Shown piece after piece: positions 41,033 through 41,664 of a stretch of DNA of 64,000 bases. Below the pieces are notes generated by a model. The model was not told the DNA's origin, did not search any database, and worked only from the letters and a program-made list of their open reading frames with translations. Both the position numbers and the translations under genes were made by a program. Source of the stretch: Eledone cirrhosa (Eukaryota); NCBI GenBank assembly GCA_964016885.1, contig OZ024743.1, positions 328,662,001 through 328,726,000 of the forward strand. The letters run 5' to 3'. How positions within the stretch are numbered: the first letter of the stretch is position 1; every line of letters starts with the position of its first letter.

Positions 41033-41269
41033 TTGCGAGGTTTTTGATATGAAATCGTGTCGAAACAAATATTGTTATAGTTGGGGAGGGTCATATTGTT
41101 GTAATAATATTGCCAGAATTAATAACAGAACACACTGTTTGGTTGGTTTTCGTTTCTGTATCTTTTATATCAGTTAATTCATTCGGTCCTCAATGTTTAC
41201 CACTGACTTGACCATATATATATATCAATGATATTAATAAATGGAAACTATATTTATAAAACCATATTT

Positions 41270-41328
41270 ATTCTATTATATATATTTCAAGGGCATCAAC
41301 ACTTTGGTACACTCTCATCAGATAAAAT
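41270..41328 (-). ncRNA. Type I minimal hammerhead ribozyme
   Basis: AUUUUAU-CUGAUGA-GAGUGUA..UGCCCUU-GAAA-U-AUAU-A-UA-AUAGAAU. Confidence 0.72.
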
Positions 41329-41469
41329 TAAAAGCTTGTTTTATAAATATTGACATAACCAGGAATGAAACCTTAACGGTTCAAGTTTTACCTGGAAAGT
41401 CTGGATAGAAAACTTGAACCGTTAAGGTCTCATTCCTGGATATGTCAATATTTATAAAACAACATTTGT

Positions 41470-41528
41470 ATTTTATCTGATGAAGGCGTACCAAAGTGTT
41501 GATGCCCTTGAAATATATATAATAGAAT
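41470..41528 (+). ncRNA. Type I minimal hammerhead ribozyme
   Basis: AUUUUAU-CUGAUGA-AGGCGU..AUGCCCUU-GAAA-U-AUAU-A-UA-AUAGAAU. Confidence 0.72.
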
Positions 41529-41664
41529 AAATATGGTTTTATAAATATAATTTCCATTTATTTAATATCCTTGATATTATACTCCAGAAAATTTGTCGAG
41601 TGCTTCGAATCAGTTATAAACATATATATTTGTTGAATTATCAACAAATTAAATATCCCTTTTG

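Follow-up and report, generated by a model that had tools for sequence, protein, structure and literature searches.

The window, the whole stretch of 64,000 nucleotides analysed here from contig OZ024743.1 of Eledone cirrhosa, contains two loci, 41222-41669 (locus 1) and 46203-46557 (locus 2), which by sequence comparison are head-to-head inverted repeats, both within (TA)n (Table 1). A sequence-only reading had proposed two inverted-repeat loci of one family, and arm-to-arm comparison bears this out at both; its spans (41222-41577 and 46293-46557) place the palindromes correctly but miss one 90-nt tail per locus. Arms of the family have two fixed 3' ends, long (tailed) and short (tail-less), 90 nt apart. 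Locus 1 belongs to subfamily A and locus 2 to subfamily B, which are 75-80% identical over long BLAST matches. The arms of locus 1 show a mutual identity of only 92%, yet they have three minority variants of hammerhead stem II in common. Folded as a whole, locus 1 has an energy of -230 kcal/mol (z -33).

Table 1. Parts of the two inverted-repeat loci in the window.
Feature	Position	Strand	Remarks
Locus 1 left arm, subfamily A pLTR, unit positions 1-179	41222..41400	-	short (tail-less) end in (TA)n
Minimal type I hammerhead, locus 1 left arm	41268..41329	-	core 41321, predicted cut after 41277; stem I end weakened
8-nt templated insertion at locus 1 junction	41401..41408		antisense of unit positions 2-9
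Locus 1 right arm, subfamily A pLTR, unit positions 12-270	41409..41669	+	long (tailed) end in (TA)n
Minimal type I hammerhead, locus 1 right arm	41469..41530	+	core 41477-41483, GAAA 41510-41513, predicted cut after 41521
90-nt tail, locus 1, right arm only	41578..41669	+	in full-length copies runs on into ORF start
Locus 2 left arm, subfamily B pLTR, unit positions 8-278	46203..46473	-	long (tailed) end in (TA)n
90-nt tail of subfamily B, locus 2, left arm only	46203..46292	-	
Minimal type I hammerhead, locus 2 left arm	46335..46400	-	core 46392, predicted cut after 46344
Locus 2 right arm, unit positions 105-188, short end	46474..46557	+	hammerhead: 3' half only

Several other features share the window. 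A repeat immediately to the left of locus 1 (41040-41215) has a degenerate hammerhead-like core; sequence similar to it borders L022, L091, and L093, indicating that ends of the Penelope-like element (PLE) type nest in the same TA tracts. Both loci are located 18-23 kb upstream, on its strand, of a 463-aa open frame with a SERTA motif (22152-23540, minus strand), which is likely a host gene. An arginine-rich open frame at 18656-19126 (plus strand) is protamine-like in appearance and gave no match in a Pfam scan, and an array of a 48-bp unit (56567-60960, ~83 copies, ~95% identity) contains long stop-free frames. Remains of non-LTR retrotransposons occur on the minus strand at 1403-4784, with an RVT_1 match at 2674-3723, and at 42968-43414.

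Complete CUGAUGA...GAAA...UH cores are found three times, at 41477 (plus strand), 41321, and 46392 (both minus strand), so the three intact cores reported earlier are confirmed by a core scan of both loci, and the cuts then predicted (after 41521 on the plus strand, after 41277 and 46344 on the minus strand) agree with the recomputed hammerhead fold. The fourth arm (46474-46557, plus strand) begins inside stem II and lacks CUGAUGA. An Rfam scan gave no hammerhead model match at the window loci. Stem II, whose pairing was said to be kept, is indeed present and covarying, but it has mismatches in all three cores: C.C (or U.C) at the fourth position in 3/3, together with A.C in both locus 1 arms. 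The closing pair is A-U or G.U, compared to the usual G10.1-C11.1. Among 18 hand-picked motifs of this and related families, 7/9 stem II pairs vary on both sides and 96% of cells pair, a figure that is not a probability since the sequences are related. Helix III comprises two pairs and a 4-nt loop, and in both subfamilies its 8-nt region is complementary to itself (with two G.U wobbles in B), as expected of dimer-dependent hammerheads (PMC4209133). The core is intact in 122/150 of the sampled arms that span it.

Inside a palindrome, the predicted penalty for the ribozyme fold is 56-89 kcal/mol, compared to 2-4 kcal/mol in a single arm, and the transcript is predicted to form a long hairpin in which 9-11 of the 11 core bases are paired. 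The ribozyme of a palindrome would thus be locked in dsRNA and silenced by the antisense arm. The earlier view that read-through from either strand yields one ribozyme plus its antisense is right as to geometry in three of the four strand/locus cases, but it overlooks the burial of the core in the hairpin. Since the core is predicted to be buried, the palindrome would be a by-product rather than a design for presenting ribozymes. The AATAAA that had been placed across the 3' end is instead part of the stem I 3' strand, ~50 nt upstream of the short end. We rejected it as a poly(A) signal, as poly(A) follows 0/120 arms ending at a fixed end; (TA)n adjoins 107/120 of these arms.

Judged from its sequence context, the repeat unit is the pseudo-LTR (pLTR) of a protein-coding, ~4-kb PLE of the Hydra clade. 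In longer copies the unit is preceded by an ORF end and an AT-rich 3' UTR, an arrangement seen at 29/30 loci fetched with an upstream query. L061, a 7.3-kb palindrome built like the two loci in the window, carries the ORF in each arm, and L300 contains an open 735-aa RT/GIY-YIG frame (motifs YRDD and NVVY...YVG) between two pLTRs 4,234 nt apart. L300 belongs to a sister subfamily, with a pLTR 84-88% identical to that of subfamily B; no intact ORF of subfamilies A or B themselves was found among the copies examined. The PLE origin proposed earlier is borne out by the ORF linkage and the RT/GIY-YIG frame, and the suggested search for an autonomous PLE leads to L300 in this sister subfamily. Scanning the ORF against Pfam and PDB sequences returned no RT or EN match; its Atlas neighbours carry GIY-YIG/RVT_1/PF26215 at 0.96-0.98, and the only named protein match for the family is from Argonauta, with 38% identity.

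Among loci fetched downstream of a 5' pLTR, 13/14 have a second tandem pLTR, spaced by 3.6-4.4 kb in 12/13 copies, and the long 3' UTR accounts for this size. In 10/13 full-length copies, part of the copy's own 3' UTR (21 to >630 nt, 96-100% identity) is cleanly duplicated before the 5' pLTR. The two pLTRs of one copy are mutually closest in 8/13, tied in three, and farther in two. Given that the unit is a pLTR, the tail runs from the short end to the long one and lies just 5' of the start codon.

The features that define an EN+ PLE are all present, namely one ORF with RT and C-terminal GIY-YIG (L300), partial tandem pLTRs, an inverted 5'-truncated copy, and a tail at one end. Membership of the Hydra clade is assigned from motifs, not from a tree. 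The element resembles Hydra-1_Obim and its clade, as described in the accessible part of Craig et al. 2021 (PMC8557442), in its C-terminal GIY-YIG-type EN, in DKT instead of DKG (VKSDKTN in L061 and L300), in an R-W-basic motif near the N terminus, in the CxCX5C linker (CNCRNKSNC), and in the CxxC..E..N..CxH residues around the EN E and N (CDLC-IEE...N...CRH), the last two read in L300 and likewise found in subfamily A. The canonical hammerhead, the (TA)n target, the partial tandems, the inverted 5'-truncated copy, and the one-end tail are also alike. Compared to the clade as described there, the motif is RWR rather than RWK, in the same place by eye comparison with Hydra-1_Obim, the tail is 90 nt rather than 30-40, and the element is 4.0-4.2 kb rather than <3 kb, the latter being a tendency and not a criterion in the part of that source available to us. 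Hydra-1_Obim is another family, and its hammerhead and sequence, as listed in that part, are unlike those of this element. Four strings of this element were not found in the accessible part of the PMC8557442 supplement, where line breaks could mask a match.

Exact 32- and 34-mer counts in the 3.0-Gb genome gave 4,682 subfamily A arms and 5,922 subfamily B arms, together at least 10,604. The family variation was confirmed in DNA-type sequencing contigs; a DNA search with the subfamily B tail alone, in which AT-rich words were skipped, returned zero matches. Of the nine most frequent B haplotypes, eight are found in stubs and also in copies that extend into the element body, and one in stubs only (0/4 with upstream sequence). 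With haplotypes common to stubs and long copies, a separate non-autonomous element is not needed, and since the junction, which varies from locus to locus among the sampled palindromes, differs at nearly every one, the palindrome is not the replicating unit. These data do not support the earlier proposal of a distinct non-autonomous ribozyme retroelement, whose palindrome would present an active hammerhead on either strand. We regard that reading as very unlikely even though stub 5' ends pile up at one motif (53/95, unit positions -3 to 30), as a short transcript might, a tailed stub contains both priming sites, and one haplotype is known as stubs only, because it conflicts with the eight haplotypes also present in long copies, with the changing junctions, and with the fold cost within the palindrome. 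Secondary copying from tailed stubs may nevertheless occur.

A MITE-like DNA transposon with terminal inverted repeats is hardly credible. Its inverted arms and TA flanks are there, but the two ends are not equal, many arms stand alone (59 of those sampled), and neither the equal terminal inverted repeats nor the constant structure of a MITE is found. The unit is moreover the pLTR of a retroelement, so the ORF linkage already contradicts this origin.

The arms of a pair nearly always differ in their 3' ends, a one-sidedness of the tail already known qualitatively from the accessible part of PMC8557442. In a sample from contig C1 ordered by position (the first 100 hits of B and the first 30 of A), 47/53 close head-to-head pairs combine a tailed and a tail-less arm, six are unresolved, and none is like-ended; all 47 resolved pairs therefore follow the rule (p 1e-14 at 0.5). 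A top-hit sample gave 45/50 such close pairs, four unresolved, and one tailed/tailed case, which sits at the 5' end of a full-length copy with a short end on the other side. The rule applies to 10/12 distant pairs, with one true tailed/tailed pair, and to 6/6 resolved full-length copies that have an inverted arm 4 kb from the other end. The 59 unpaired arms divide into 28 tailed, 27 tail-less, and four unresolved. Two exceptions, L278 (tail-less/tail-less) and L280 (tailed/tailed), came from a targeted look.

Partner arms of 34 B pairs agree at 309/317 lineage sites, compared to 0.68 after permutation (mean 0.677, maximum 0.794), in support of the earlier claim that each palindrome formed in its own event. 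Agreement at other sites (97.7%) is like that at lineage sites, and one pair is haplotype-discordant (5/9 sites). A more general discordance of partner arms (19/102 and 19/64 site comparisons) proved to be an artefact of top-hit selection and was gone in the position-ordered sample. Junctions, whose classes are approximate as they derive from BLAST ends, comprise 40 overlaps of 1-10 nt, seven blunt joins, 27 insertions of up to 20 nt, and 18 others.

We consider it probable that each palindrome represents two 5'-truncated pLTR copies inserted head to head in (TA)n, likely in one integration event in which both cut strands primed on the same RNA at sites 90 nt apart. The arm data, together with an in vitro result on a PLE (accessible part of PMC11167929), make double priming the best reading. 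The endonuclease would cut both strands of (TA)n; one 3'-OH would prime at the distal site, giving the tailed arm, and the other at the proximal site, giving the tail-less arm, each helped by 3-6 nt of AU-repeat complementarity. The distal cDNA would then stall at the proximal site or displace the other cDNA, and the two cDNA 3' ends would be joined and filled in. We infer the strand displacement and the end joining; overlapping arms (up to 3.3 kb in L061) need such displacement on one RNA, which we assume. It is in the intact element that the hammerhead would function, probably by dimerisation of the motifs in the 5' and 3' pLTRs via their self-complementary helix III.

Tailed-arm 5' ends lie within 12 nt of the short end in 10/33 cases in range (p 0.004, with both samples pooled and the 12-nt limit set after the data were seen), and in nine of these ten the partner starts at unit position 12 or lower. 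Such a cluster is what collision on one RNA would give. It is not predicted if, within the same event, each strand primes its own RNA from one source locus on an asymmetric dimer with one subunit per start site, an arrangement that we find rather unlikely, as it also needs an extra rule against like-ended pairs. Two sibling transcripts of one source locus would give matching arms too, and separate templates would explain the long overlapping arms of L061 without strand displacement as well as the single haplotype-discordant pair.

The alternative of fold-back, in which the long-end cDNA snaps back and is self-copied, and the endonuclease trims the tail of the second arm ("EN-mediated resolution" in the accessible part of PMC8557442), accounts for identical arms and a one-sided tail, and could draw on the ATT triplet present at the short end in both subfamilies and on a weak hairpin at the common 5' boundary. 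Nevertheless, in 38/92 pairs the tail-less arm has >20 nt that are missing from the tailed arm, even where the tailed arm consists of the tail alone, which argues against simple fold-back. Junction positions also vary widely, and later deletions of the centre would have to end exactly at the natural start of the partner, so that we judge this route improbable. The boundary hairpin itself was discarded as a candidate structure, being weak (-2 to -6 kcal/mol in the common variants) and showing one compensated pair in A and many breaking variants. A UUGUUG/CAACAA-type tail hairpin occurs in both subfamilies, with z values of only -0.9 and -1.7.

Returning to double priming, the 5' ends bear on the form of the template. 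On the first pass through the pLTR, 53/95 of the B arms reaching position 30 stop between -3 and 30, where an ACTATCC motif is kept across subfamilies. When the pLTR is traversed a second time, at the 5' pLTR of copies with the ORF, 1/21 stop in this interval (Fisher p 1e-5), and 0/9 in B proper (p 0.001); this second-pass set covers 30/70 sites examined, of which nine stopped earlier, classed by eye. The 5' ends and the 3' UTR duplications fit two templates, a linear RNA starting from the motif and a circular or tandem RNA; a difference in processivity or read-through transcription would fit as well. In L059 (subfamily A), an octamer motif with a pyrimidine tract after it lies ~65 nt upstream of the pLTR, before the common 5' boundary; subfamily B has a longer pyrimidine tract, and the octamer motif is absent in the copies examined.

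A circular RNA template has been proposed for PLEs (PMC4209133). As a tentative extension, a PLE dimer might prime one RNA twice, at sites 90 nt apart and one per strand, while the ribozyme sorts the templates: uncut linear RNA starting at ACTATCC would yield pLTR stubs, and cut, circularised RNA would yield full-length copies of more than unit length. If so, the genome would preserve, in countable form, the geometry of priming as well as the circle step proposed for PLEs.

The families are new, within a known clade and with a known insertion geometry. Hammerheads on opposite strands in truncated, inverted PLE ends have already been published: Cervera and de la Pena described opposite-strand pairs 100-700 bp apart in Schistosoma and ascribed them to truncated PLEs. 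Their hammerheads are likewise of type I, with an unstable palindromic helix III and a predicted need for dimers. By comparison, subfamilies A and B are without the extra base between 9 and 10.1 and without G10.1-C11.1, and this element has a conserved C.C mismatch in stem II and an AUA cleavage triplet. For Poseidon PAc of Anolis, the accessible part of Frangieh et al. 2024 (PMC11167929) reports in vitro cutting and extension of both target strands and reverse transcription from two internal sites downstream of the hammerhead, which define the tail. The two RT starts, the use of both strands, the AT-rich target, and an AC-rich hairpin near the starts are alike, whereas relative to that account the sites here are 90 nt apart, lie upstream of the start codon, and have 3-6 nt in common with the (TA)n target at both ends.

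Animal non-LTR retrozymes (PMC7229834), as presented in the accessible part of bioRxiv 10.64898/2026.07.22.740005, likewise carry a type I hammerhead, within a short unit that is non-coding and related to the pLTRs of PLEs. They form head-to-tail arrays with ends set by ribozyme cuts (accessible part of bioRxiv 10.64898/2026.07.22.740005), whereas the arms of this element occur singly or in head-to-head pairs, with ends located 55 and 145 nt beyond the site of cleavage. No head-to-tail array of the short unit was found at the window loci or the sampled loci. LINE-1 twin priming produces an inversion when the second target strand primes internally on the same RNA; in contrast, the second site is fixed here and the arms usually overlap. 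Our literature search, whose scope excluded the subscription literature on Drosophila Penelope and which does not establish absence from print, found neither a paired-end or twin-priming model of PLE insertion nor cephalopod palindromes.

What is added here are the tailed and tail-less counts, the lineage match between partner arms, the pile-up at the short end, and the comparison of stub and second-pass 5' ends. They constitute a large natural data set on PLE integration and on why the tail is one-sided, and the pairing rule, the common lineage, and the short-end stall yield predictions testable in the existing in vitro PLE assay. If transcribed, the thousands of hairpins of 170-270 bp could feed dsRNA pathways.

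Related families show comparable structures. A third palindrome beside locus 2 (45836-46116) belongs to another young Hydra-type PLE family, with copies 97-99% identical and RT/EN frames in L296 and L298. Its hammerhead has a longer helix III and a core at 46024 (plus strand), the left-arm core being mutated, and a short piece at 46574-46650 shows an 86% match to the tail of this family. More distant families at L039, L145, L182, L198, and L206 have the hammerhead core and loop III in common, while their stems and tails differ. All five complete distinct pairs seen in the 45836-46116 family consist of one tailed and one tail-less arm.
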